Part shown: in pieces, positions 4,290-47,864 of the stretch
Layout of the letters: each line of letters begins with the position of its first letter
How positions within the stretch are numbered: the stretch's first letter is position 1
Assembly: GCA_903897805.1 (NCBI GenBank)
Contig: CAIUCV010000005.1
Coordinates: 2,384-66,383, forward strand
Origin: Candidatus Yanofskybacteria bacterium
GTDB lineage: Bacteria; Patescibacteriota; Minisyncoccia; 2-02-FULL-40-12; IGHO2-01-FULL-4-A
DNA: 64,000 nt
Reading direction: 5' to 3'
The notes under the pieces: generated by a model
Database searches by the model: none
Seen by the model: the letters and a program-made list of their open reading frames with translations, nothing else
Told to the model about the DNA's origin: nothing
Program-made: the position numbers and the translations under genes

Positions 4290-5498
4290 CTATCCTGCCC
4301 CGACCAAGCTGTATATCGGCAGCAAAACCGCCGAAACCAGACCGGCTACGCCCACGCCCAAAATCAGTATCAGCACCGGTTCTATCAACTGGGAAAGGTT
4401 CTGAACGTCATTTTCGGATTCTGTTTTATAAAATTTGAAAATATTTTCCAGCATAAAGTCAGTCCGGCCGGTTTTTTCTCCAATCGCCAGCATTGAGGTG
4501 AAAAGAGCGGGAAACTCTTTGTATTTTTCAAATATTTCGGAAATGGTCCCTCCGCCCCGGACATTTTCCACCGCCTCTGAAAGAATTCTCTTATAAATGA
4601 CATTGCCCACGACATCCGAAGTTATCGTTAGCCCCTCCAATATCGGCACGCCGGCCTTAATTAAAGTGGAGAGCGTTTCGGCAACGCGGGCAAGATAAAG
4701 ATTTCTTACCACCTTGCCAAATTGGGGCATCTTCACCTTAAAGTTATCAAACCTCTCTCTGCCTCTGGGCGTCTTGATGGAATAAAAGAAGCCAAAAACC
4801 AAGCCGATTATTATAACCAATAATGGGATTATGAATTTATTGATGAAGCCGGTTCCAGCAACAAGAATTTTAGTGGTAAACGGCAAGTCCGTCACGCCGG
4901 CATCTTTGATAATTGAAAGCAGTTGGGGCAACACCGTGGTCATCAAAATAATCGTTATCACTATCATGGCGCATAATATAAAAGCGGGATAAGTAAGCGC
5001 GCCTCTGATCTTGGAGTTTAAGCTCGAGCTTCTTTCCAAATAGTCGGCAAGATATGAAAGGGCATTCTGGAGTTTTCCTGAAACTTCGCCAGTTCTGACC
5101 AAGCTAATATAAAATTTGCCGAAAACCTTACCGTGCTCGCTAAGGGCGACGGAAAGCGAGGCGCCGCCTTCAATTGAAGACGCAATGCTTAAAATAACCT
5201 TCCTGAAAGATTCTTTTTCTACCTGGCGGGCCATAGTGTACAGTCCTTCTACAAGAGGTACGTCCGCGTCAACCAGAGTAGCCATTTGCCTCGTAAACAT
5301 AACCACGTCTTTCTTTGACGGCTTGTTAAATGCTGAAAGCAAATCTTGACCCAAAAGACCCTTTTGGACCGGCTCTAAGCTCAAAACCACCAAATTCTTT
5401 TGGTGGAGCAGGGTTACCGCCTGATCCTCGGAGGGGGCTTCAATCTTGCCCTCTACCAGCTCTCCGCTTTGTTGTTTTGCCCGATAGAGAAATTCCAT
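4290..5498 (-). CDS. pilC: Type IV pilus platform protein PilC (GspF family)
   Basis: 402-aa polytopic membrane protein with the duplicated GspF-domain pattern. Confidence 0.85.
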   Translation of the reverse strand: MEFLYRAKQQSGELVEGKIEAPSEDQAVTLLHQKNLVVLSLEPVQKGLLGQDLLSAFNKPSKKDVVMFTRQMATLVDADVPLVEGLYTMARQVEKESFRKVILSIASSIEGGASLSVALSEHGKVFGKFYISLVRTGEVSGKLQNALSYLADYLERSSSLNSKIRGALTYPAFILCAMIVITIILMTTVLPQLLSIIKDAGVTDLPFTTKILVAGTGFINKFIIPLLVIIIGLVFGFFYSIKTPRGRERFDNFKVKMPQFGKVVRNLYLARVAETLSTLIKAGVPILEGLTITSDVVGNVIYKRILSEAVENVRGGGTISEIFEKYKEFPALFTSMLAIGEKTGRTDFMLENIFKFYKTESENDVQNLSQLIEPVLILILGVGVAGLVSAVLLPIYSLVGAG

Positions 5499-5502
5499 TG
5501 AT

Positions 5503-6570
5503 TTAACGAGCCAGCATTCTCAATTCAGAAGGGTTCAAAGAATAAAACTCCGCCTGCTCCGCTGATATCTCTTTCCGCCTAAGCAAATCTGCCAAAGAAC
5601 GGTTTAAGGAAATCATCCCCGCATCGGAGCCGGTATCAATTGCCAGGTTCAGCTGCTGAATTCTACCGTCCCTAATCAGATTCCTGACCGCCGTGTTGGC
5701 AATCATCAGTTCAACCGCCGGTATCAAGCCGCCTTTCGTGCGGGGGATAAGCCGTTGGGATATCACGCCGGAGATAGTGTCTGCGAGCTGGGATACGATC
5801 TGGCGCTGCTGCTCCGGAGGGAAACTGTCAATAATGCGCTGAACGGTCTGGGCGGCGTTATTCGTATGAAGCGAGGCAAAAACCAGATGTCCCGTCTCGG
5901 CGGCGGAAACGGCGGCGCTCATAGTTTCGTAATCGCGCATCTCCCCCACCATTATCACGTTTACATTCTCGCGAAAAGTTGAGCGCAGCGCCTTGCTGAA
6001 AGAAAGTGTATCTTGATACAGCTCGCGCTGGTCAATGATACTCCGGTCCGGGGAAAAGATATATTCAATCGGGTCCTCAATCGTTACTATTTTCTCCGCT
6101 CGCTCGTGGTTAATAAGGTCAATCAGCGCGGCCATGGTTGTTGACTTGCCGTGGCCATTTGGCCCGGCTACGAGGACAAAACCTTGGGAAAGCTTGCTGA
6201 AAATTTTGATGGCCAGCGGAAGATTAAGCTCTTCAATCGTTCTGATATTTTTCGGGATAAAACGAAAGGCGACTGCAAAATTTCCTCTCGTTTGATAAAC
6301 GTTAGCCCTGCAGCGAACATCGTCGTTCAGTTCATAGGCAAAGTCCAATTCTTTCTGGGCCAGAAATATCGCTTTCCGTTCTTCGCCAAGAATTGAAAAA
6401 ACAAGGTTTTCAAGAAGTTGCCTGTCAAATATCGGCTGTTCAGTAAGCGGAATCAGGCGGCTGTCAACTCTCATTGTGGGATGATGCCCGGGAGACAAAT
6501 GCAAATCCGACCCTCCTTTTTGGGCGGTCATTTCTATAAGGTCGTCTAATTGTTTTTTATAATTGTCCAT
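5503..6570 (-). CDS. pilT: Twitching motility ATPase PilT
   Basis: Walker A GPNGHGKSTT, AIRNLIRDG PilT signature, ~355 aa. Confidence 0.85.
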   Translation of the reverse strand: MDNYKKQLDDLIEMTAQKGGSDLHLSPGHHPTMRVDSRLIPLTEQPIFDRQLLENLVFSILGEERKAIFLAQKELDFAYELNDDVRCRANVYQTRGNFAVAFRFIPKNIRTIEELNLPLAIKIFSKLSQGFVLVAGPNGHGKSTTMAALIDLINHERAEKIVTIEDPIEYIFSPDRSIIDQRELYQDTLSFSKALRSTFRENVNVIMVGEMRDYETMSAAVSAAETGHLVFASLHTNNAAQTVQRIIDSFPPEQQRQIVSQLADTISGVISQRLIPRTKGGLIPAVELMIANTAVRNLIRDGRIQQLNLAIDTGSDAGMISLNRSLADLLRRKEISAEQAEFYSLNPSELRMLAR

Positions 6571-8409: not shown

Positions 8410-8693
8410 TAAAATGGCGCAAAAATGTCCAGCCGGCCGGTTGGGCCCGGTTGGACCGGCGATTCACCGAAAGTCTTAAGAGATTTAAATCTGGCATCGT
8501 CAAAAATTGAAAAATCCAAATTAAGGTCCTTGAATTTTGAAAGCGTGTCGTCAGCTGTGACCGGCGGCGAGATTCCCACTTCGCTCCCCTGAATTGTCAT
8601 GGAGAAAAAAAGATAACCGGCGACAATGCCAATGACTATTATTGCTATCGGTATCACTTTGCTCGGATTTTCTTTGCTTGTGCCTGTTGCCAT
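8409..8693 (-). CDS. Small single-pass membrane protein of the pilus operon (hypothetical)
   Basis: The stop shares one nucleotide with the pilB start (TAATG), indicating translational coupling. One TM helix. Confidence 0.4.
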
Positions 8694-8710
8694 GAATAAT
8701 TAGTTAGTAG

Positions 8711-8749
8711 CCCCGACGTTCCAGTCGGGGTCCCGACCTTGCGTCGGGA
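8711..8749 (-). repeat. Two adjacent near-identical hairpins (CCCCGAC-n6-GTCGGGG and TCCCGAC-n5-GTCGGGA) inside the pilus operon
   Basis: Seen directly between the pilO stop and the start of the 94-aa gene. No T-run follows, so this is probably an RNA processing or stability element rather than a terminator. Confidence 0.5.
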
Positions 8750-9286
8750 TTATTTAAGATTATAAGCGTTAAGTTTCACGCTGAAGTTAACCATATTCTG
8801 GCCTCCGCCGGTAGTACTTGTCGTCAGAGAACCGATAATTCCAAAAATGTCGTACAGGCGGAGATTTTGCTCTAATAATTTCAAAAAATTAACAAAAGAG
8901 GGATACTGGCCAATAACGGTAAAATCGACGAATATTTTTTTGTAGCCCGCCTCTTCCCCCGTTTCGGCTGCGGCGGCCGTTGTCATATCGGCCAAACTAA
9001 GACCGGCTTGGTTTGCTATTTGTTGGATGCTTGAAACAATCTGGTCTACCCTTTTTTGTTCCGGCATAAATGTGGTTATTTTATCAATGCCCGCCTGTCT
9101 GGCTTTGTACTGCCCGTCAAGCTCCGCAACGTTTTTCAATTCCGCATTTTTCTCTTCTATCAAGGATTGCCTGACCTGGAGAGCTGCTCTGGCATTCTCA
9201 ATGGAAGTAAACTCCGGCAAAACCAAAACAAAGAACGCGAATGCTCCTGCGGCGAAAACTATGGAGGCAATGAGGGTCCTGTTCAT
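8750..9286 (-). CDS. pilO: Type IV pilus assembly protein PilO-like
   Basis: N-terminal TM then coiled coil. Positioned after pilN with a 4-nt overlap. Confidence 0.55.
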   Translation of the reverse strand: MNRTLIASIVFAAGAFAFFVLVLPEFTSIENARAALQVRQSLIEEKNAELKNVAELDGQYKARQAGIDKITTFMPEQKRVDQIVSSIQQIANQAGLSLADMTTAAAAETGEEAGYKKIFVDFTVIGQYPSFVNFLKLLEQNLRLYDIFGIIGSLTTSTTGGGQNMVNFSVKLNAYNLK

Positions 9287-11062: not shown

Positions 11063-11827
11063 ATGCATACATTCAAGGGCTGGCTTTTGGATCTTCTTTT
11101 CCCCCGTCTATGCCTCGGCTGCGAGATTTCGCTGTCCGACAACAATGAATCCCACGTTTGTTCGGCTTGCCTGGCTGGCATAAAGATGAAAAACGACTTT
11201 GCCTGCGCATTTTGCAACTCGCCGGTGGTCGCCGGTACGACCTGCCCTTTTTGCAGGGCCGACCATTTTCTGGATCGGCTCTTTGTCGCAACATCTTACG
11301 AGAATCCGCTGGTACAAAAAATTATCAAGACGATGAAATACCGCTTTGTAAGGTCGTTGGCCGACGACATGGCCGGGCTTATGGCTAGATATCTTGAGCG
11401 GAGATTTTCGCTGGGTTTTAACATTGACCGCGGTTCAACTGTTGTTGTACCGGTCCCGCTTCATCGCAGGCGGTTAAACTGGCGGGGATTCAATCAGGCA
11501 GAAATTATCGGTAACGGTATCAGCTCTTATTTAAAACTAAACTTTCAGAATCTTCTCGTGCGCATCCGTAATCACGTTCCGCAGGCGCAAATAAGCGACC
11601 GCCAGTCAAGAATTGCCAACGCGACTGGAATTTCTAAATGCATGGAGCCCGAACTGGTGCAAGGCAAAACCATCCTTCTTGTGGATGACGTGGCAACTAC
11701 CGGTTCAACGCTGGATGATTGCGCCCGCGCCCTCAAGGCCGCGGGCGCAAAAGAGGTTATCGGTTTTGTTTTCGCAAGAGGAACATTTGCCTCGGATAAA
11801 AAACTATTGCAACGATCGGAAAAATAG
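11063..11827 (+). CDS. comFC: ComF family competence protein (phosphoribosyltransferase domain)
   Basis: N-terminal C4 zinc finger (CLGC...CSAC...CAFC...CPFC); C-terminal PRTase motif LLVDDVATTGSTL. Confidence 0.7.
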   Translation: MHTFKGWLLDLLFPRLCLGCEISLSDNNESHVCSACLAGIKMKNDFACAFCNSPVVAGTTCPFCRADHFLDRLFVATSYENPLVQKIIKTMKYRFVRSLADDMAGLMARYLERRFSLGFNIDRGSTVVVPVPLHRRRLNWRGFNQAEIIGNGISSYLKLNFQNLLVRIRNHVPQAQISDRQSRIANATGISKCMEPELVQGKTILLVDDVATTGSTLDDCARALKAAGAKEVIGFVFARGTFASDKKLLQRSEK

Positions 11828-14187: not shown

Positions 14188-15465
14188 ATGTTAAAAAATA
14201 AACTTACAAAAAATCTAAATCCGGATGTAACCGTTGAAACTATTGAGAAAGCAAGTAAAAAATTGAAGGAAGTTATTAAAAAAACTCCCCTTCAGTTTTC
14301 CAAAAGACTTTCTAAGTTGTACAAAGCCCACGTGTATCTTAAAAGAGAAGATTTGCAAGAGGTTCGCTCATATAAAATCCGTGGAGCATATAACCTAATG
14401 AGTTCTCTTACCAATTCCGAGAAGGAAAAAGGCGTTGTCTGCGCAAGTGCTGGAAATCATGCTCAAGGTGTAGCATTTAGTGCTTCGGCTTTGAAAGTTC
14501 GTGCAGTTATTTTTATGCCAGTAACTACGCCGTTGCAAAAAGTTAACAGGGTTAAAGAGTTTGGCGGAAGATGGGTAAAAATAGAGTTGGTAGGAGCAAT
14601 TTATGATGAAAGCTCCACCGCCGCTAAAAACTTTTGTAGAAAAGTTGGGGCTGTTTTTGTCCACCCATTTGATGATGAAAGAGTAATCTCCGGACAAGGG
14701 ACGGTCGGTAAGGAAATTTTTGATCAAGCGGAAGGAAAATTAGACTATATACTTTGTCCAGTTGGAGGCGGAGGGCTAATATCCGGAGTAGGTACATACC
14801 TTAAAACAAAATTAAAGAATGTAAAACTTGTCGGAATTGAACCAAAAGGAGCGGCGGGAATGTATCGTTCCTTAAAAAATGGCAAGGTTACTGCTCTTGA
14901 AAATATAGATCCATTCGTAGATGGCGCGGCTGTTAGAACAGTAGGAACTAAAACTTTTAAAATCTCCTCAAAACTTGTTGACCAAATGGTATTAGCAGAT
15001 GAGGGAAAAGTTTGTACTACTATGGTTGATCTATACCAGAATGAAGGCATTGTAACAGAACCAGCCGGAGCGCTTTCTATCACTGCTTTAGAAGAGCTAT
15101 CGGAAAAAATTAAGGGCAAAACAGTAGTTTGTATTTTGAGTGGAGGAAATAACGACATTTTACGCTATCCGGAGATTATGGAAAAAAGTTTGGTCTACCA
15201 GGGACGCAAACACTACTTTATTGTGGAGTTTGCCCAAAAACCCGGGCAACTTAAAAAGTTCGTTAACAGCGCGCTTGGCCCAACTGATGATATAGTCCGT
15301 TTTGAATACATAAAGAAAAACTCCAAAGAAATGGGACCAGCTTTGGTTGGAATTGAGTTGACTAAAAAAGAAGATTTTCAACCTCTCCTCAGCAGAATGG
15401 ATAAACTTGGAATAAGATATACAGTTCTTACAAGTAGGGATATTTTGTATAGTTACTTGATATAA
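14188..15465 (+). CDS. ilvA: Threonine dehydratase (PLP-dependent, with C-terminal regulatory domain)
   Basis: SYKIRGAYN PLP-lysine motif, glycine-rich GGGGLISG loop, ~90-aa C-terminal ACT-like extension. Confidence 0.8.
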   Translation: MLKNKLTKNLNPDVTVETIEKASKKLKEVIKKTPLQFSKRLSKLYKAHVYLKREDLQEVRSYKIRGAYNLMSSLTNSEKEKGVVCASAGNHAQGVAFSASALKVRAVIFMPVTTPLQKVNRVKEFGGRWVKIELVGAIYDESSTAAKNFCRKVGAVFVHPFDDERVISGQGTVGKEIFDQAEGKLDYILCPVGGGGLISGVGTYLKTKLKNVKLVGIEPKGAAGMYRSLKNGKVTALENIDPFVDGAAVRTVGTKTFKISSKLVDQMVLADEGKVCTTMVDLYQNEGIVTEPAGALSITALEELSEKIKGKTVVCILSGGNNDILRYPEIMEKSLVYQGRKHYFIVEFAQKPGQLKKFVNSALGPTDDIVRFEYIKKNSKEMGPALVGIELTKKEDFQPLLSRMDKLGIRYTVLTSRDILYSYLI

Positions 15466-16840: not shown

Positions 16841-17011
16841 GGGTCTTATTCTCCTGTAAAAGAACAGTTATTTCTAAGTATAATTATGCGGTTCCAAAAT
16901 TGCACGGTCAATTCTTTACTAATCACCAAAAAAATGAGATAATTTACCCTGTCAAATAACTCTTTTAGAGTTCCCGCCTTAGCGGGATTTGACAGGGTAA
17001 ACTCAAATATT

Positions 17012-17098
17012 GGTGGGGTGCGAGAGTGGTTGAATCGGCCGCACTCGAAATGCGGTAAGGGCGCAAGCTCTTCGTGGGTTCGAATCCCACCCCCACCG
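17012..17098 (+). tRNA. tRNA-Ser (anticodon CGA), long variable arm; CCA not encoded
   Basis: Acceptor GGTGGGG/CCCCACC, anticodon stem CCGCA/TGCGG with loop CTCGAAA, T-arm GTGGG-TTCGAAT-CCCAC, discriminator G. Confidence 0.75.
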
Positions 17099-17141
17099 CA
17101 ATGACAATTTTTTACACCTTTTGATGTTAAAAATTGGCATC

Positions 17142-17159
17142 GCAGTGGTGGGATTCGAA
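17142..17159. repeat. Inverted partial copy of the tRNA-Ser 3' end (GCAGTGGTGGGATTCGAA vs TTCGAATCCCACCCCCACCGC) 44 nt downstream of the tRNA
   Basis: Seen directly; could pair with the tRNA T-arm/acceptor region to form a long hairpin. Confidence 0.5.
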
Positions 17160-17257
17160 GGGTATCCGAGAGAGTGAATTGCTTCACTACGCTGGCCATA
17201 AAACAGCTTGAAAATGGCCCGTCCTGAGGCTATCGAAAGGCTGTTTTTTGTTGGGCT

Positions 17258-17292
17258 TGACTTTAGCTAGGTTATTATGATATAATTAAATC
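17258..17292 (+). promoter_or_regulatory. Sigma70-like promoter TTGACT-18-TATAAT
   Basis: Consensus hexamers ~40 nt upstream of the 17334 start; RBS AAGGAGAAGG. Confidence 0.5.
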
Positions 17293-17333
17293 ATCGTGGA
17301 AACCCCGCGACAAGGAGAAAGAAGGAGAAGGTC

Positions 17334-17735
17334 ATGACTCTCATTACTGTCGTTGTTGCATTAGTCGCCCTCGTTGTGGGGGCGATTCCGGGGGTGCGAG
17401 TATTTGCCCCCAAACTTGAGCCTCCGCAACCGCCTCCGCCGGCCGAGCCCAAACACTTCGGGCTATGGTCGGTCGAAGCCGTGAGAAGCGAGCTTGGCGG
17501 GCTTTCACCCACCGACGGGAAAGTAATTCGCATTGCGGTTGCTGTCGCCGGCATGGAATGGACTCTGCCGGATGACGTGGCCAATGCCCGCACAACTCTA
17601 GCCCAGTGTATCGCCGAGAGGAAAGGCGACATCAAAGACCTGGAAGTCGAGATTGGCGAGGCAAGGGCTCAGATTCAAGTCGCCGAGACCCGCGACGCAG
17701 AAGTCGCCGCGGTAGCCGCCGCCTTCGGCTTGTAG
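17334..17735 (+). CDS. Hypothetical protein with N-terminal TM helix, encoded in a GC-rich (~65%) segment
   Basis: Strong RBS plus promoter plus downstream terminator. Composition is sharply different from the flanking DNA. Antisense ORFs in the same span lack signals. Confidence 0.45.
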   Translation: MTLITVVVALVALVVGAIPGVRVFAPKLEPPQPPPPAEPKHFGLWSVEAVRSELGGLSPTDGKVIRIAVAVAGMEWTLPDDVANARTTLAQCIAERKGDIKDLEVEIGEARAQIQVAETRDAEVAAVAAAFGL

Positions 17736-17878
17736 GCACCCCGTCCCGGCCAAACATAACCGCCTCTTCGCTGAGGTTGCCCGAGAATTTTCCCAGGGCG
17801 TAATAACAAGGGGAACCAGTTCTTTGTCTATCCGTTTATCTGTAAAATAAATGGTGAGCCTAGAGGGAGCAGAACCTC

Positions 17879-17906
17879 AGACGGTCGAAAGGCCGTCTCT
17901 TTTTTT
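17879..17906 (+). terminator. Rho-independent terminator (AGACGG-n8-CCGTCT + T7)
   Basis: Seen directly downstream of the GC-rich gene. Confidence 0.65.
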
Positions 17907-18009
17907 ATGAATTTACATTGCAAACAAAGCGCAAAATTGTTTATAATGATCTTGGGAACGAGCGAAACGGCAGATTTCTTTAGTTAGAGAGAATCTTTTT
18001 TCGTGTGAT

Positions 18010-18210
18010 TTGGTACCAGGACTTTTTATGGCGGTAGTGCAGCTTATGGACTGGGTATTCAAGATGCACATGATAGAGAACCCGTATATTATTTCTGACT
18101 TCGGGCTTGGCACCGCGATAGGTCTTGTGATTATGACGTTCGTCGTGGGATATGTCTTTGGATGGGTATTTGCGGCGCTTTGGAATAATTTAAGAAAATC
18201 AAGCCAATAA
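18010..18210 (+). CDS. Small membrane protein (66 aa), TTG/ATG start
   Basis: Extended -10 promoter (TGTTTATAATG) upstream; one TM helix. Weak evidence. Confidence 0.3.
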   Translation: MVPGLFMAVVQLMDWVFKMHMIENPYIISDFGLGTAIGLVIMTFVVGYVFGWVFAALWNNLRKSSQ

Positions 18211-18254
18211 GCGCAATCAGAGTTGAAAATAAGTTTTTAACCCGCGGAAAAGAC

Positions 18255-18344
18255 GGTGGGGTGCTCGAGTGGTTTAAGAGGACAGTCTTGAAAACTGTTG
18301 TACGGGAAACCGTACCGTGAGTTCGAATCTCACCCCCACCGCCA
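18255..18344 (+). tRNA. tRNA-Ser (anticodon TGA), long variable arm, CCA encoded
   Basis: Acceptor GGTGGGG/CCCCACC, anticodon stem ACAGT/ACTGT with loop CTTGAAA, T-arm GTGAG-TTCGAAT-CTCAC. Confidence 0.75.
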
Positions 18345-18359
18345 ATAAAATTTATTAAC

Positions 18360-19016
18360 TTGGCAAGAATAATTGATCTCAAAAATAGGAAACCCCAGAT
18401 GCAGGAGCCCGTCCGACAGGCTCAGGGTGAACCTGCTCCTCAAAACATATTGGCAAAACCGCAAGTTGAAGCGGCGGGAATTAGGCCGCATCAATTTACC
18501 AGACCCATGCCGCAAGAAAGCCCTCCCCCGCCCCAAGTGACGCCTGGGCCCAAGACGCAAGTACTTAGCTGGTCGGGGCCGCTTTATATCCACCGGCCGG
18601 ATATGAAAATTATTGCGGTCGTTTCACTGGCGCTTTTTGCCATTGCGGCGCTGATGCAGATATTCCAGAAAAATATCATCACCACAATTTTTTTCAGCCT
18701 GCTGGGAGTGGTGATTTTAATCAGGGCGAGTAAAAAACCGGAAGTCGTGGATTTTGAGATTAATCCGCTTGGGGTCAAGGTCGGGGAACAGCTTTACGGG
18801 TTTCGCGAGATTAAATCTTTTTGGATAGAATACGATCCAGCGCTTGATATAAAGGAACTAAGCTTGCAGTTGAAAAAGTGGTATCATACCTATGTTAAAA
18901 TCCCGATTTACGATCAAAATCCTGTACAATTGCGTTTAATTTTGTTAGCATTTTTACCCGAGGCAGAGCACGAAGATACCTTAGCAGACACAGTATCCAG
19001 AAGATTGGGGTTATAA
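18360..19016 (+). CDS. Hypothetical membrane protein (Pro/Gln-rich N-terminus, 2 TM); true start may be internal
   Basis: The ORF begins 16 nt after the tRNA. Hydrophobic helices at residues ~95-135. Confidence 0.4.
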   Translation: MARIIDLKNRKPQMQEPVRQAQGEPAPQNILAKPQVEAAGIRPHQFTRPMPQESPPPPQVTPGPKTQVLSWSGPLYIHRPDMKIIAVVSLALFAIAALMQIFQKNIITTIFFSLLGVVILIRASKKPEVVDFEINPLGVKVGEQLYGFREIKSFWIEYDPALDIKELSLQLKKWYHTYVKIPIYDQNPVQLRLILLAFLPEAEHEDTLADTVSRRLGL

Positions 19017-19037
19017 AATCTGACGAGCCATGAATTT

Positions 19038-19109
19038 GTCCCCATAGCTCAGCGGAAGAGCGTCTCCCTCCGGAGGAGAAGGTCGGAGGTTCAAATCCTC
19101 CTGGGGATA
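19038..19109 (+). tRNA. tRNA-Arg (anticodon CCG)
   Basis: Acceptor GTCCCCA/TGGGGAT (G1-U72), anticodon stem TCTCC/GGAGA with loop CTCCGGA, T-arm GGAGG-TTCAAAT-CCTCC, discriminator A. Confidence 0.75.
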
Positions 19110-19142
19110 CAAAATATTACCGGAGTGCTCAAACTGCTTTAA

Positions 19143-19270
19143 GTACGTGAGGATTTGAACGCCGGAGCGATGTTCGGCGAGCAGTTGGCGAGCCGAACCA
19201 CGAGGCGATGGCTAGGCCGAGGAGGCGGAAGCCGACGAGAGCCGAAGCCAAATCCTCCTGGGGATACAAA
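19143..19270 (+). repeat. Structured repeat element A (~125 nt) following tRNA-Arg(CCG): the 5' end is the inverted complement of the tRNA T-arm and the 3' end is a direct 25-nt copy of the tRNA 3' end
   Basis: GTGAGGATTTGAAC pairs with GTTCAAATCCTC of the tRNA. AAATCCTCCTGGGGATACAAAATAT is duplicated at 19251..19275. Internal hairpins are present. It is homologous to element B. Confidence 0.6.
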
Positions 19271-19276
19271 ATATCA

Positions 19277-19348
19277 CCCCTTGTAGTTCAACGGACAGAA
19301 CGCGAGATTGCGGATCTCGTAATAGAGGTTCGATTCCTCTCAAGGGGA
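19277..19348 (+). tRNA. tRNA-Arg (anticodon GCG as read from the sequence)
   Basis: Acceptor CCCCTTG/CAAGGGG, D-arm GTTC..GAAC with GG, anticodon stem CGAGA/TCTCG with loop TTGCGGA, T-arm AGAGG-TTCGATT-CCTCT, discriminator A. Confidence 0.7.
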
Positions 19349-19385
19349 CACGAATGAAATGGGTGGGCGCTTGAAGCAAGCCAAT

Positions 19386-19512
19386 TGTTTGGCTTGTGTG
19401 AGGAATCGAACGCCGGAGCATGTGATTTTCCGCGTTCGGCGGAAAATCACGCGAGGCGGTGGCTAGGCCGAGCGGGCGGAAGCCCGCGAGAGCCAAAGCC
19501 GAATTCTCGAGG
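19386..19512 (+). repeat. Structured repeat element B (~125 nt) following tRNA-Arg(GCG), paralogous to element A
   Basis: GTGAGGAATCGAAC is the inverted complement of the tRNA T-arm TTCGATTCCTC. It contains a perfect 12-bp hairpin GTGATTTTCCGC-gttcg-GCGGAAAATCAC and a GCGGGC-GGAA-GCCCGC tetraloop hairpin. The 3' end GAATTCTCGAGGGGATA resembles the tRNA 3' end. Confidence 0.6.
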
Positions 19513-19549
19513 GGATAACCAACTAAAATACCCGCCAGCGGCGGGTATT
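19509..19549. repeat. Perfect 19-bp stem hairpin (ACCAACTAAAATACCCGCC-agc-GGCGGGTATTTTAGTTGGT)
   Basis: Seen directly at the end of element B; no T-run on either strand. Confidence 0.6.
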
Positions 19550-19715
19550 TTAGTTGGTTGATGTCCTTGACAAGCTTTTGTGCCGGGGGTATAGAGAAAG
19601 TGGCTAGTGGAATAAAGTTTCTAGAAGCCTTGAAACTTTACATTAGTACCTTGACAATTAAAGTGGGCCCCATAAAGGCGCCCTCGGCACCCAACTAACC
19701 AAAAGGAGGGAGATC

Positions 19716-44191: not shown

Positions 44192-44458
44192 TTATCTCTT
44201 GAGATCCAGTTCCTTGATGATCTTTGCGTATCTGGACGGGGCCTCTTTTTTCAGATAATCCAAGAGCCGTTTGCGCTTGGCCACCATCTTCAAAAGACCG
44301 GTACGAGAACTGTTGTCCTTTGAATGCTTCTTAAGATGCTTAGCCAGGGCCTCAATTTCTTCTGTAAATAAAGCAATCTGGACCTCCGATGAGCCGGTGT
44401 CGCCCTCATGCGTGGCGTGTTTGGTCACAACCTTCTGTTTTTGTTTGGGGTTTAACAT
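44192..44458 (-). CDS. rpsO: 30S ribosomal protein S15 (start trimmed to Met13 giving 88 aa)
   Basis: HEGDTGSSEVQIALFTEEI...RTGLLKMVAKRKRLLDYL S15 signature. Classical rpsO-pnp linkage, here with the NYN gene between them. Confidence 0.75.
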   Translation of the reverse strand: MLNPKQKQKVVTKHATHEGDTGSSEVQIALFTEEIEALAKHLKKHSKDNSSRTGLLKMVAKRKRLLDYLKKEAPSRYAKIIKELDLKR

Positions 44459-44522
44459 CGAACTTATAATAGCATAAACCGTACCCCCTTGCAATTTTTA
44501 TCGGCCGTGCTAGGATAAGGAC

Positions 44523-44743
44523 GACGGCGATACGATTCACCGCCGGTAGCACCCGCCGACCATAACCAGTCGGCCGGCCAAACAGTCCGCGGGACTTTGT
44601 GTCTCCGGGGCTCGCTCTTTGTACCGCTGGCACATGAGGGATAAATGCCAGTGCCGTACGACCATTCTGTGACCTGCAGACCCTCGTAGTACCTCTCAGG
44701 ACCGAATCCTTTCTCCCTCACCGGATTCGGTCTTTTATTTTTG
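44523..44743 (+). ncRNA. Candidate small RNA or leader: GC-rich (~60%) ~220-nt segment between a TTGCAA-16-TAGGAT promoter-like element and a strong intrinsic terminator; no convincing ORF
   Basis: Promoter-like element at 44489..44516. Several stable hairpins. Terminator hairpin GACCGAATCC-n13-GGATTCGGTC + TTTTATTTTT at 44699..44743. Only a 14-codon ORF is present. Confidence 0.25.
44699..44743 (+). terminator. Strong rho-independent terminator (10-bp stem + T-run)
   Basis: Seen directly, 65 nt upstream of the xerD-like start. Confidence 0.7.
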
Positions 44744-44807
44744 CCAAAGATTTGCCAAGCGGCTCAGTCATGTCGCAAAATATAGCCCCTGTGGTAAAAT
44801 AAAGGCG

Positions 44808-45731
44808 ATGACCGTAAAAGACCTCAAATCACAATTTCTGGAATATATGGAAATAGAAAAGAACCGTTCGCCGAAAACGATTGAGAATTATAACCATTAC
44901 CTGACCCGCTTTATCAGTTTCGCCAAAGTTGAAAATCCGAGAGACATTACGGAGGAAACCATCCGCAAATACCGCCTCACACTTAATAGGACGACGGACG
45001 AGCGGGGGAAACCCCTGAAGAAGGTTACTCAAAATTACCACGTCATTGCCCTGCGGTCATTTCTAAAATATCTTGCCAAGCGCGACATCAGAGTCGTCCC
45101 TGCCGAGAAGATTGAGCTGGGCAAGCAGGAAGAGCGGGAAGTTGTTTTTTTGGAATCATCGGAACTGGAAAGGTTTTTGCGCGCACCGCAAGGGGAGACC
45201 TTAAGCAACCTCCGTGACCGGGCGATCTTGGAGACGCTTTTTTCAACCGGCCTGCGCGTGTCGGAACTGTGCTCGCTGGATCAGGACGATATTGACTTGA
45301 AGAGGGGAGAGTTTTCGGTTAGGGGGAAGGGGAGCAAATTGCGTATGGTTTTTTTGTCCGAACAGTCAAAGACGGCAATCTCAAGCTATTTAGACAAGCG
45401 GCAGGACGCTGACGAAGCGCTGTTTATCCGCGTGCCCCGCAATGAGCGTTTTGAAAAATATGAGGAATTGCGCCTTACGCCGCGCAGCGTTCAGAGGATT
45501 GTAAAAAAGTATGCCATTGCCGCCGGTATCGTCGGTAAAAAAGTCAGCCCTCATAGTTTGCGCCACTCCTTTGCCACAGATTTATTGCGAAACGGCGCGG
45601 ACATCCGCTCGGTGCAGGCCTTGCTCGGCCACTCCTCCATCACCACGACCCAGATTTATACCCACGTAACCGATAAACAACTCCGGGAAATTCATCAAAA
45701 GTTTCACGGCAAAACAAAAACCGCTCAATAG
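44808..45731 (+). CDS. xerD: Tyrosine recombinase, XerC/XerD family (could alternatively act as an integrase)
   Basis: C-terminal HSLRHSFAT...LLGHSSITTTQIYTHV with R-H-R-Y catalytic residues; 307 aa. Confidence 0.75.
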   Translation: MTVKDLKSQFLEYMEIEKNRSPKTIENYNHYLTRFISFAKVENPRDITEETIRKYRLTLNRTTDERGKPLKKVTQNYHVIALRSFLKYLAKRDIRVVPAEKIELGKQEEREVVFLESSELERFLRAPQGETLSNLRDRAILETLFSTGLRVSELCSLDQDDIDLKRGEFSVRGKGSKLRMVFLSEQSKTAISSYLDKRQDADEALFIRVPRNERFEKYEELRLTPRSVQRIVKKYAIAAGIVGKKVSPHSLRHSFATDLLRNGADIRSVQALLGHSSITTTQIYTHVTDKQLREIHQKFHGKTKTAQ

Positions 45732-45766
45732 GGCGGTTCTGAAAAAGAACTATTTACTAACCCATG

Positions 45767-46723
45767 CTACTTTGGCTTACCACCTGCTTGTCCCGGGTCG
45801 CGGGAGATAGGAGCTGTAGCTGAGGGAGGGCTGGAAGACGATATGGTTCCGGAAGTCCCGGCAGAAGTGGCAGGAACCGTTGCGTAGCCAAGATTGGGAT
45901 TGTAGGTAGGAGTTATAACGCTGCTGCCCGGTGGGGTCGACCTAAATACAGTCACTGCACTCATCGGGTTCCAATAACAATCGCCGTAAAAACCGCAGTA
46001 ATTCCTAAAGGGGAGATAAGCCATCATACCGAAGTAGGGATCCCATAGCCAATCGCTGTATCTCCAAGACGTTAACATTCGCCCACCATAGATTGACCTT
46101 GCCGCGGATAAGCTTGCCATGGCCAGGTATCCTGCCCGCCGACGGCTCCATAGGGAAAGATCATCCTCTATCTTTACATTGAATTTTCCTACAGTGAGAG
46201 CGCCGTTAAAGTTAACTTGTTTTCCTTTCCCCGCAAAAATAGTTTTGCCCCCGAATTCTACTTTTGCTTTACCTTTGTAAACTTGAAATCTGGTCAAGTC
46301 GGCATCCAGTCGATATAGACCGTTTTTCAGTAAATACGCAGTCATATTCTTGCATCTAAGAACGACGACATTATTTTTGGTATTCTCAACGTATTCCACA
46401 ATGATTGAGCCGCTCCGGAGTTCCAGCTCGGTGTTCAGTAGTTTGCTTGAAACGACTCGCAAATCACTATTTTCGCCCATACGCAGAAACAGCCCCGGAC
46501 CAAACAGCATTTCGACCCGTCCTTGTCCGGTTTGGATTTGGTCACTGTCCTTAAATAGAGGGAAAACCCCGAACTTTGGTTCCAATAGCTGATTATTTAC
46601 CAAAACCTTGCCTTCAGTGTAATGAATTAAACCGCCCTTTGCCGGAATGACCTGTTGGGCAAATCCCACACTGCTGACCGCAAAGAAGAAAAGGGTAATG
46701 ATGTTGCTGGCAGTCCGTTTCAT
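45767..46723 (-). CDS. Secreted FecR-domain-like protein
   Basis: Signal peptide. GKVLVNN...GQGRVEMLFGPGLFLRMGENSDLRV resembles the FecR (PF04773) pattern. RBS GGGAGGAAAT. Confidence 0.45.
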   Translation of the reverse strand: MKRTASNIITLFFFAVSSVGFAQQVIPAKGGLIHYTEGKVLVNNQLLEPKFGVFPLFKDSDQIQTGQGRVEMLFGPGLFLRMGENSDLRVVSSKLLNTELELRSGSIIVEYVENTKNNVVVLRCKNMTAYLLKNGLYRLDADLTRFQVYKGKAKVEFGGKTIFAGKGKQVNFNGALTVGKFNVKIEDDLSLWSRRRAGYLAMASLSAARSIYGGRMLTSWRYSDWLWDPYFGMMAYLPFRNYCGFYGDCYWNPMSAVTVFRSTPPGSSVITPTYNPNLGYATVPATSAGTSGTISSSSPPSATAPISRDPGQAGGKPK

Positions 46724-46860
46724 ATTTCCTCCCGTTTTTAAAGACCGCCCTCAAATATTAGCCCCGCAAGAAGAAGGGGTCAAGCCATCAGGGACGGCTG
46801 GCGAAGTCATTTTTTATCGTTCCCACAAAATAAAACAGCCGTAACGGCCGTTTTAATTTG

Positions 46861-46873
46861 TGGAGATGTGGGC
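46861..46873. repeat. 13-nt direct repeat of the tmRNA 3'-end sequence (GTGGAGATGTGGG), 210 bp from the tmRNA 3' end
   Basis: Identical 13-mer at 46861..46873 and 47071..47083; chance expectation in 64 kb is ~0.001. Confidence 0.6.
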
Positions 46874-47027
46874 ATTGAAGCCAACTGCTTGGCTTCAATC
46901 GGAATTTTAGCGAGGCCTCCGTGCCGAGCGGCTTAAAATCAGAATGATTTTAAGAAAAATTCAGGGAAGAACTTATCGCCCGAAGGGCGATTGTTCAACT
47001 CCGCAGCTTTGCTGCAATAATAAAACA

Positions 47028-47059
47028 AAAAGCGTCCTTTAATGGGACGCCTTTTGTTT
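47028..47059. terminator. Bidirectional terminator (AGCGTCC-tttaat-GGACGCC flanked by A- and T-runs) immediately 3' of the tmRNA
   Basis: Seen directly. Confidence 0.65.
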
Positions 47060-47070
47060 TATTACCACAG

Positions 47071-47422
47071 TGGAGATGTGGGGAGTTGAACCCCAGTCTG
47101 GAAAATGATTTAAAATTGCACTACAAGTTTAGCCGGGTTGATTAGACTTCAGTTAAAAACCCGACAAAATAACCAAAGACCTATTTTGTATTTTTCGTGC
47201 TCTATCGCTAAAACATTGAAAAGGTGATAGGGCCTTATCCTGCTGATGACGCCCTGGTCCGGTTAGCAGAAATCACCGGGAGGACGCGCCTTAAGCGTAA
47301 GCTAGGGCGTAATTGCTGTTGTAATTGGCAATTATGATTTTGGGTAAATGATTTAAGTGGTGATTATCCATCCACTACTTGCGCAGATTTTAAAAGAAAT
47401 TCCATCGAAGCCGGTCATCCCC
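47071..47422 (-). ncRNA. ssrA: tmRNA (SsrA), standard one-piece, ~352 nt; predicted tag ANYNSNYALAYA
   Basis: 5' GGGGAUGACCGGCUUCGAUGG, consistent with a GGGGNUGA tmRNA 5' end. 3' T-arm UGGGG-UUCAACU-CCCCA + CAUCUCC + A discriminator, with a G3-U70 wobble. Tag ORF GCC AAT TAC AAC AGC AAT TAC GCC CTA GCT TAC GCT TAA. Adjacent to smpB. Confidence 0.8.
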
Positions 47423-47864
47423 GTTGTTTTAATGTTCTTTCTATTTTTCTTTGGGTTTCGCGCTCAATGATTTTCTCGCGTTTATCGCCTTTCTTTTTTC
47501 CTTGCCCGATGCCCACTTCAAGCTTTATCAAACCATTCTTATTATACAACTTAATTGGCACCAATGTCAATCCCTTCTCCTGCGATTTCCCGGTTAGATA
47601 ATTGAGCTCTTTCTTTTTCAAAAGCAATTTCCGGCTCCTTTGCTGGTCATAATTGGGCGGGACATTGCCGGCTTGGTAAGGCGAGACCGTTGCACCCAAA
47701 AGCCACGCTTCACTGTTCATAATTTTAACATACGCGCCCTTTATTGAGCACCTGCCGGCCCTGATTGATTTAACCTCGTGTCCGGTCAAAACCAGACCCG
47801 CTTCCAGCGTCTCCAAAATGTGATAATCAAAATGAGCTTTTGGGTTTGTGGCGTACGTTTGCAC
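47415..47864 (-). CDS. smpB: SsrA-binding protein SmpB
   Basis: YEAGLVLTGHEVKS...C-terminal basic tail; 149 aa. Confidence 0.85.
   Translation of the reverse strand: MQTYATNPKAHFDYHILETLEAGLVLTGHEVKSIRAGRCSIKGAYVKIMNSEAWLLGATVSPYQAGNVPPNYDQQRSRKLLLKKKELNYLTGKSQEKGLTLVPIKLYNKNGLIKLEVGIGQGKKKGDKREKIIERETQRKIERTLKQRG

Follow-up and report, generated by a model that had tools for sequence, protein, structure and literature searches.

The stretch of DNA analysed here, 64,000 nt from Candidatus Yanofskybacteria (Patescibacteria, the candidate phyla radiation or CPR) and called the window below, carries a transfer-messenger RNA (tmRNA) gene, ssrA, whose 3′ end is probably occupied by a member of a family of miniature insertion cassettes that are site-specific for the T-loops of tRNA and tmRNA genes. 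The window cassette extends over 46873..47069 and the last ~13-25 nt of the tmRNA gene. The family has a common layout: a copy of the 3′ end of the gene, an optional terminator, segments complementary to the acceptor strand and the T-arm (anti-acceptor and anti-T), a structured core and, finally, the old 3′ end. The cassettes build up in tandem arrays, close relatives differ in which of them are present and in what order, and none contains a recombinase gene. The insertion architecture, the membership of the family, the empty sites and the covarying sense-strand core are all observed, as is the independence of the module from the xer gene, the FecR-like gene and the small RNA (sRNA) candidate nearby. 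An earlier note, made from the sequence of this DNA alone, had taken the locus for the scar of an integrated or excised element. It was right about an insertion signature at the 3′ end of the gene; the scar is not a decayed one, for the 197 bp of spacer form no debris but a module that is conserved and structured and has homologues in at least five other loci. In the following paragraphs L-numbers label the comparison loci.

The 13-mer GTGGAGATGTGGG has just two exact occurrences, at 46860..46872 and at 47070..47082, which lie 210 nt apart from start to start with 197 nt between them. The note had reported this exact recurrence and its distance, with the distal copy one position too high (46861..46873). 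The first copy (47070..47082, minus strand, CCCACATCTCCAC) is the working 3′ end of the tmRNA and comprises the 3′ half of the T-stem, the 3′ acceptor strand, the discriminator and a C. By analogy with the empty tRNA-Arg sites described below, the second (46860..46872, minus strand) is read as a displaced, older tmRNA 3′ end. The terminator which follows it (AAATTAAAACGGCCGTTACGGCTGTTTTATTTTGTGGG; 46822..46859, minus strand, located by scan) is likewise read as the original tmRNA terminator; the same terminator stands after the last copy in L001 and directly 3′ of the tmRNA in L251. A repeat of 13 nt is short, and it might be thought a coincidence or a by-product of the composition of terminators and palindromes. 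We give this explanation next to no credence: only 0.04 copies of the 13-mer are expected in shuffled sequence, none of 100 shuffles contained two or more copies, and the same arrangement, with lineage-specific sequence, is seen in many genomes and only downstream of genes.

The 197-bp insert between the copies (46873..47069, minus strand) is non-coding, no open reading frame (ORF) being found within it in the ORF list or the sequence, and its homologues in other loci define it as a module, which we term unit B. Reading away from the tmRNA, it begins with TGTGG and an intrinsic terminator (GGCGTCC..GGACGC and a T-run; 47018..47069, minus strand), the hairpin of which spans 47018..47064 and which also gave a match at 47032..47050 in the scan of the opposite strand. 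Both the current 3′ end of the tmRNA and its terminator are supplied by the module. A small hairpin, GCAGCAAAGCTGC (47003..47015, minus strand), precedes the anti-T segment GGAGTTGAAC (46993..47002, minus strand), which is the exact complement of tmRNA GTTCAACTCC, that is, of the T-loop and the 3′ half of the T-stem. The core consists of three hairpins predicted by RNAalifold on the minus strand: ATCGCCC-TTCG-GGGCGAT (46975..46991), CTTAAAATC..GATTTTAAG (46932..46954) and GCCGCTCGGC..GAGGCCTC (46910..46932). The module closes with a palindrome with 11-bp arms, ATTGAAGCCAA-GCAG-TTGGCTTCAAT (46874..46899, minus strand), whose 3′ half doubles as a degenerate copy of the T-arm and which in L223 shows a compensatory change from A-U to G-C. 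The palindrome and the terminator hairpins are located as the note had claimed, but its statement on what lies between the copies is incomplete, the spacer also holding the anti-T and three more conserved hairpins. In an alignment of six sequences the predicted fold of unit B has 41 pairs, nine of which show compensatory changes.

Homologues of unit B are located 3′ of the tmRNA in L001, L003, L197, L198 and, in truncated form, L251, and 3′ of a tRNA in L223. Each copy closes with the 3′-end sequence of its own host genome, CCCACATCTCCAC in the window, CCCACAGATCCAC in L003 and L197, and TCCCCATCTCCAC in L001; the duplicated tmRNA 3′ end recurs in relatives, in each case with the sequence of that genome's own tmRNA. 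The anti-T covaries with the host T-arm, being GGAGTCGAAC where the latter reads TTCGACT (L003) and AGAGTTGAAC where it reads CAACTCT (L251). A second module, unit A, accompanies unit B in several of these genomes. Behind the tmRNA the order is A-B in L001 and L198 and B-A in L003 and L197; the window has unit B only, L251 unit A and the truncated unit B, and L249 a variant unit A with a nested insert. In L004, L009 and L017 the tmRNA is followed by a terminator without modules. The third unit of L001 is a relic, the anti-T of which fits the T-arm of an L249-type tmRNA and not that of its own. In L249 itself (~8690..9058, minus strand) the insertion of ~150 nt is nested within the core of unit A, and the terminal copy is CCCACATCTCCAC, the tmRNA end of the window, and not L249's own CCCCCATCTCCAC.

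At the tRNA-Arg locus of the window, alignment with relatives appears to demonstrate insertion directly. L256, L257 and L259 possess the orthologous locus without units, in the order 218-aa membrane ORF, tRNA-Arg(ccg), ~10 nt, tRNA-Arg(gcg), terminator. In the window tRNA-Arg(ccg) (19038..19110) is followed by unit A (19111..19268, plus strand; 98.3 bits with R1, our covariance model of the unit) and by a 19-nt exact repeat of its sequence from T-loop to 3′ end. Compared with the empty sites this is an insert of 139 bp with a 26-nt duplication, CAAATCCTCCTGGGGATACAAAATAT, at its flanks, which spans from C56 of the T-loop to 8 nt past the gene. A second insert, of ~170 bp, follows tRNA-Arg(gcg); here unit A (19350..19519, plus strand; 95.1 bits) closes with an older copy of the tRNA 3′ end that has diverged. 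Beyond each second copy the sequence continues collinearly with the downstream flank of the tRNA in the empty sites. Furthermore, the second copy behind tRNA-Arg(gcg) retains the acceptor base of the relatives (CTCGAGGGGA), while the working gene has CTCAAGGGGA and a matching, compensated 5′ strand, from which we conclude that the second copy is the older, displaced 3′ end. Where the two copies of a unit differ, the anti-T pairs better with that of the working gene in 30 cases out of 36 and with the second in two, a preference which fits the second copy as a relic. It also led us to reject a conserved helix P1 formed by anti-T and second copy, the anti-T tracking the working gene's copy instead. 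At 1..420 of L259, some 2 kb away from its empty tRNA-Arg site, lies a pair resembling a diversity-generating retroelement, bAvd and a fragment of an RVT_1 reverse transcriptase; it is probably unconnected with the site.

A third type of module, unit C, lies behind tRNA-Ser(cga) in the window (17100..17260, plus strand) and consists of an anti-T, GGTGGGATTCGAA, followed by GGGTATCCGAG and a hairpin. In the window the tRNA end was not detected a second time at this unit; its core also occurs behind the tmRNA of L011 (13252..13430). Modules are therewith present behind four of the six tRNA and tmRNA genes of the window. In 27 CPR loci and the window, the last 24 nt of 48 tRNA and tmRNA genes were compared with the 400 nt downstream; a direct repeat of at least 10 nt was found for 10 genes and an inverted match of at least 10 nt for 12, as against none of either kind in the upstream control.

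Unit A was sought in metagenomes. Its core sequence pattern, which is free of tRNA sequence except for GAAC, matches at least 120 metagenomic loci. Among the matches listed, 94 of 123 units have the end of a tRNA or tmRNA gene on the same strand 24-90 nt upstream, and the hosts represent at least 17 tRNA identities. This association is an underestimate, because some of the units lacking a called tRNA stand behind a tRNA with an intron or an interrupted tmRNA, genes which ARAGORN fails to call. The segment immediately 5′ of the core complements the T-arm of the particular tRNA, and that immediately 3′ repeats its sequence from T-loop to 3′ end. The left arm is ordered as optional terminator, anti-acceptor, a hairpin with a conserved CUGC loop, GCGU and anti-T; the palindromic hairpin of unit B described above, when reverse-complemented (loop CTGC), is this same left arm. 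The 3′ end of the tRNA, the terminator and the anti segments together make up one long imperfect palindrome, and in many units a strong terminator separates the unit from the tRNA. L142 contains two units with cores only two differences apart behind different tRNAs, each with tRNA-specific ends. Clustering of the genes neighbouring the 123 units among the matches listed revealed housekeeping genes and occasional small GIY-YIG ORFs only, and no integrase, transposase or reverse transcriptase recurring beside them. One metagenomic locus (L138, upstream of the unit at 2428, minus strand) has a tRNA with an insert of ~210 nt in the anticodon loop, followed by unit A; the insert looks like a group I intron.

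The core of unit A is predicted to form a three-way junction. In an RNAalifold alignment of 40 sequences it has 30 pairs, 21 of them with double compensatory changes; once the structure is fixed, the paired cells amount to 92.3% (72.5% in shuffles) and the covariation score is 0.52 versus 0.17 in shuffles, a value which none of 500 shuffles attained (0.07-0.10 in slid controls). Positions left free in the search pattern (S) covary perfectly, columns 70/111 being GC in 25 sequences and CG in 15 without a break. In 83 of 86 units the predicted fold is more stable on the sense strand than on its complement (-43.9 versus -35.9 kcal/mol), and GNRA loops and tandem G-A motifs are frequent. R1 detects only the two Arg units in the window, with 98 and 95 bits, and 12 units in the CPR genome loci. 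Units B and C escape it and hence have cores unlike that of unit A, although their overall layout is the same. Rfam 15, run on the whole window at the gathering threshold, has no match for unit A, unit B or the sRNA candidate, and at E<=10 the regions 44300..47200 and 16950..19650 yielded only spurious microRNA and sRNA matches over a terminator.

A core of this kind also speaks for a different interpretation, namely that the modules are immobile, vertically inherited functional RNAs encoded in 3′ trailers, their presence or absence reflecting loss by recombination between repeats. They would be co-transcribed by read-through, the anti-T and anti-acceptor pairing with the 3′ half of the tRNA or with the downstream copy, as a decoy or as a closing helix, and would act in the control of maturation, quality control or stability, or as a tRNA-like minihelix RNA. 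The core covariation and the sense-strand folding bias favour it, as do the GNRA loops and tandem G-A motifs, the constant position of the modules on the tRNA-sense strand 24-90 nt downstream of the gene, the continuing complementarity of the anti-T to the working tRNA, the presence of a module at four of six such genes in the window and the want of a mobility gene beside the units. Close relatives, however, lack units at orthologous tRNA-Arg and tmRNA genes, and units A and B have changed places in some lineages relative to others. The duplication reaches 8 nt into the flank, which pairing of an RNA does not need; the second copy decays; and a strong terminator stands between many of the units and the tRNA. 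Protein-coding cassettes with a GIY-YIG domain, moreover, share both the position and the duplication. We therefore regard the trailer RNA as possible but rather unlikely, and return to insertion cassettes as the preferred reading. The two views are compatible: a functional RNA may be part of a mobile cassette, or the cassette may need one.

The GIY-YIG cassettes in question are small ORFs (~85-90 aa; Pfam 1e-14) located directly behind the tmRNA in L255 (~5830..6310, minus strand), L006 (8427..8800) and L016 (3148..4540). In L255 the ORF precedes a degenerate copy of a tmRNA 3′ end, and in L016 exact 20-nt repeats of such an end follow at +461 and +1367. They look like protein-coding versions of the cassettes. 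No GIY-YIG gene was found in the window. Similar ORFs occur just upstream of a tRNA with unit A in five metagenomic loci.

As the comparisons show, a cassette sits at the T-loop and 3′ end of the gene, has restored the gene, and has displaced the old 3′ end with its terminator downstream; the tmRNA gene stays intact because the cassette brings its own 3′-end copy and terminator. In the scheme which we propose, the cassettes would be moved in trans, or would formerly have been, through site-specific recombination with the T-loop as target. In the excised form the 3′ end of the core would be joined to the 3′-end copy, which would pair with the anti-acceptor and anti-T and so close the core. The palindrome formed by copy and anti segments may serve as a folded attachment site, like the attC of integrons or the attP of CTX phage, and the core may work as an RNA co-transcribed with the tRNA. 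As to the enzyme that moves the cassettes, the single Xer of the host is a speculation. A more far-reaching proposal, which we consider improbable, is that of a class of recombinase-less elements defined by structure: excised, in circular or single-stranded form, as a closed rod of ~150-200 nt in which the 3′-end copy pairs with the anti-acceptor and anti-T as a guide and the helix closes the three-way junction, they would home to the T-loop of any tRNA or tmRNA that fits the guide, via either the single host Xer acting on a folded att hairpin (as in attC or in integrative mobile elements exploiting Xer, IMEX) or an RNA-based step, ribozyme- or guide-dependent, and a change of guide would retarget them.

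Several points weigh against insertion cassettes. Mobility was not observed, and the empty sites could have arisen by deletion between the direct repeats. No recurrent trans-acting enzyme was identified beside the units, and the scheme does not account for one core family having ends matched to at least 17 tRNAs; gene conversion between pre-existing units could account for the pair in L142. The RNA-like structure of the sense strand, with its GNRA loops, tandem G-A motifs and covariation, suggests a cellular RNA function, which would make vertical inheritance with loss a viable alternative. Unit B is represented by six sequences only. The exact repeat in the window is 13 nt and begins in the T-stem, whereas the 19-nt cases begin in the T-loop. 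Lastly, no carrier element is known: the hairpin motif of unit B gave 0 matches in the viral collection, and of the 49 matches of a loose unit A motif in viral contigs, about the number expected by chance, none fitted R1.

Known systems resemble the cassettes in part. Genomic islands and prophages residing in the genes of tRNA or tmRNA may use the T-loop sublocation (Williams-type att sites), among them islands of Dehalococcoides that are specific for ssrA (PMC3146451; PMC11915505 for context). In these, as in the cassettes, insertion takes place in the 3′ part of the gene, which is restored by the element's own T-loop-to-3′-end copy, the native 3′ end is displaced and persists downstream as a direct repeat, and elements accrete in tandem at one gene. 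The direct repeat expected of such islands is present, 13 nt long in the window and 19-26 nt from T-loop C56 in related units. No integrase was found inside the element next to att, there being none in the 197-bp insert, and xer lies outside the repeats. In further contrast to the islands, the cassettes are 140-200 bp, non-coding and without an integrase at attL; they have an inverted copy of the target (anti-T/anti-acceptor) and a covarying RNA-like core, and a single core family occurs with at least 17 tRNA identities.

Group I introns occur in the TψC loop of both tmRNA and tRNA (PMC11915505). They, too, are small structured RNAs with the tmRNA T-loop as target and guide-like complementarity to the exon, sometimes with homing endonucleases. 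In the units, however, the gene is uninterrupted, a complete 3′ end preceding the unit, the core of ~90 nt is too small, and there is no omega-G. A group I intron was accordingly tried and rejected, neither region giving an Intron_gpI match at E<=10 and the tmRNA and tRNAs being complete upstream of the units. No models of hammerhead, hepatitis delta virus (HDV), twister or other ribozymes matched, and an intron was rejected on its unfit boundaries. Nor did a retro-element, with the anti-acceptor as a primer-binding site derived from mature tRNA, survive inspection, for the anti segment complements the genomic flank and the terminator stem and not CCA.

Integron attC cassettes, CTX-phage attP and IMEX elements using host XerCD depend on folded single-strand attachment sites. 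Like our units they have no recombinase of their own, consist of imperfect palindromes of two inverted target-like copies 40-100 nt apart, form tandem arrays of variable order and have strand-specific structure. The T-loop GTTCAAC and anti-T GTTGAAC of the window happen to fit attC RYYYAAC/GTTRRRY. An attC site was nonetheless rejected: the fit, seen by inspection in the window, is not general, many units having GAGAAC or TCGAAG, the repeats are 13-26 nt as against 7, and no integron integrase (IntI) or attI was seen. To link the cassettes with Xer is pure inference.

Cis-mobilizable elements (CIMEs) and miniature inverted-repeat transposable elements (MITEs) are short, non-coding, bounded by att-type repeats or target duplications and dependent on enzymes supplied in trans, and in all of these respects the cassettes are similar. 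They differ in having no known autonomous parent, no terminal inverted repeats and a conserved RNA-like interior, and their duplication is far longer than the transposase type. Functional RNAs are derived from tRNA 3′ trailers or tRNA-like minihelices, such as the 3′ETS-leuZ sponge and mascRNA. Similarly, the units are encoded directly downstream of the tRNA, are probably co-transcribed, and possibly form a coaxial acceptor/T-like helix; trailer RNAs, unlike the cassettes, do not duplicate the tRNA 3′ end, are not polymorphic for insertion and are not one family across many tRNAs.

Because each of these fails on defining points, the units are set apart from islands, introns, attC sites and CIMEs or MITEs. 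A large family of cassettes behind CPR tRNA and tmRNA genes has apparently not been described so far; no description of these modules was found in the literature searched or in Rfam 15, though sources outside that search may hold one. The genomes of CPR/Patescibacteria are small and poor in recognisable mobile elements. If our reading is correct, they hold an abundance of tiny structured cassettes tied to tRNA and tmRNA genes at the 3′ end, and movement of DNA by host Xer or by an RNA-based mechanism, without a dedicated integrase, becomes testable. Unit A is a well-supported new RNA motif in view of its strong covariation, its at least 120 metagenomic copies and the lack of an Rfam family. 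The combination of direct and inverted target copies is a new target-site architecture, and it explains short 3′-end duplicates which island-finding tools would misread as island boundaries.

A further explanation, corresponding to that of the note, is that the two copies of the tmRNA end are the decayed attL and attR of a larger ssrA island or prophage, with the recombinase as a domesticated integrase and the GC-rich unit as sRNA cargo. In its favour, the 3′ end of tmRNA genes is a classical site of integration (PMC11915505; PMC3146451), the gene of a tyrosine recombinase lies 1.3 kb away, and relatives differ in the genes present between xer and ssrA. Nevertheless, this interpretation is largely refuted and we consider it very improbable: the recombinase is syntenic with rpsO-NYN-pnp in every relative examined and belongs to a smooth series of orthologues, a search allowing <=4 mismatches in 19 nt met with no copy of the tmRNA end past the FecR-like gene, xer or the sRNA, the spacer of 197 bp is conserved as a module, and relatives whose tmRNA flanks differ also possess the sRNA candidate. 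With the same tolerance, no further copies were found between ssrA and rpsO in the window and six relatives, and xer and the FecR-like gene consequently lie outside any att-bounded island.

The xer gene (44808..45731, plus strand) encodes a complete Xer-type tyrosine recombinase (Phage_integrase 1e-45), as the note had it. The NCBIfam scores are 252.9 bits for XerD, 251.0 for XerC and 249.7 for XerA_Arch, and of these only the XerA cutoff (220) is passed. Across Yanofskybacteria/Paceibacteria the identity of its orthologues declines smoothly from 100% to 72%, which together with the synteny speaks against a domesticated integrase. The order NYN-rpsO-xer(+)...ssrA-smpB is kept in L004, L017, L249, L251 and L255, and its NYN-rpsO-xer part in L252 and L254 also, independently of what follows the tmRNA. 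There is no xer paralogue in the window. From its sequence and context we read Xer as a conserved housekeeping recombinase outside the module, and the gene should not be annotated as a phage integrase.

Between xer and the tmRNA lies a gene for a secreted protein of 318 aa (45767..46723, minus strand). The FecR label that the note gave it is weak: Pfam FecR gives E=2.2e-4 and 22.0 bits, below the cutoff of 24, and there is no NCBIfam match, so that membership of the family was not assigned. The segment from xer to ssrA (45732..47069 in the window) contains different small ORFs in each of the relatives L249, L251, L255, L004 and L017; where the window has the FecR-like gene, relatives have two to five unrelated small ORFs. 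It is a hypervariable spot without bounding repeats of the tmRNA end.

Between rpsO and xer is the GC-rich sRNA candidate, a predicted promoter-to-terminator unit (44489..44742, plus strand). It comprises a promoter, TTGCAA-16-TAGGAT (44489..44516), a conserved hairpin core according to alifold (44613..44663) and an intrinsic terminator (44700..44742), all on the plus strand. The unit noticed earlier is real, with a GC content of 0.60 at 44500..44699; the Rfam search proposed for it gave no match at E<=10. The central hairpin, with loop GAGGGAU, is invariant. The candidate is kept at the rpsO-xer spacer in L249, L250 and L251 only, is absent from L004, L017, L252 and L254, and in the window carries an additional ~31 nt in its 5′ part. 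Since those relatives that have it differ in their tmRNA flanks, it did not arrive with the repeat, as had been suggested; on its sequence it is an independent sRNA candidate outside the module.

The smpB-ssrA locus itself is ordinary. ARAGORN identifies a one-piece tmRNA at 47070..47422 (minus strand) with the tag ANYNSNYALAYA, and Rfam RF00023 scores 137.7 bits at 47068..47422 (cutoff 47) and covers model positions 1-374, so that both programs bear out the one-piece, minus-strand gene of the note, apart from a start at 47070 in place of 47071. The G3-U70 pair is intact in the acceptor strands (5′ GGGGAUG versus 3′ CAUCUCC). The tRNA-like domain is present, with its T-arm GGGGTTCAACTCCCC (GGGGUUCAACUCCCC as judged for membership) at 47080..47094 on the minus strand, and so is the tag frame, ANYNSNYALAYA, which closes with a stop. 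The gene smpB (47415..47864, minus strand; 149 aa; Pfam SmpB 1.7e-52) ends in ...CAA CGG GGA TGA, the TGA at 47415..47417, and overlaps the tmRNA by 8 nt; as the note had seen, the 5′ end of the latter, GGGGAUGA, is therefore made of the last smpB codons and the stop. Loci retrieved through SmpB assign the source to Candidatus Yanofskybacteria/Paceibacteria within the CPR. A consensus scan detected a perfect sigma-70-like promoter, TTGACA-18-TATAAT (12/12 matches; 47541..47570, minus strand), inside smpB and ~120 nt upstream of the tmRNA 5′ end. It is probably the tmRNA promoter, in which case the tmRNA may have a promoter of its own despite its overlap with the smpB stop. The tag ends in AYA, which is not peculiar to this genome, since the same or a near-identical tag is found in L001, L002, L003, L004, L006, L009, L249 and L255, the very same AYA-ending one being that of L001, L009, L249 and L255.

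The tmRNA of the window is uninterrupted. Three relatives have interrupted tmRNA genes, which go uncalled by ARAGORN (L251, ~4303..4465; L007, ~15111..15300; L008, ~11505..11670). The inserts, of 165-190 bp, are hairpin-like and differ from gene to gene in their internal position; they have long inverted repeats at their termini, share the inner motifs TTTCGTAGCGAAAT ... ATTGCAGTAGAAA, and could be intervening sequences or MITE-like inserts.

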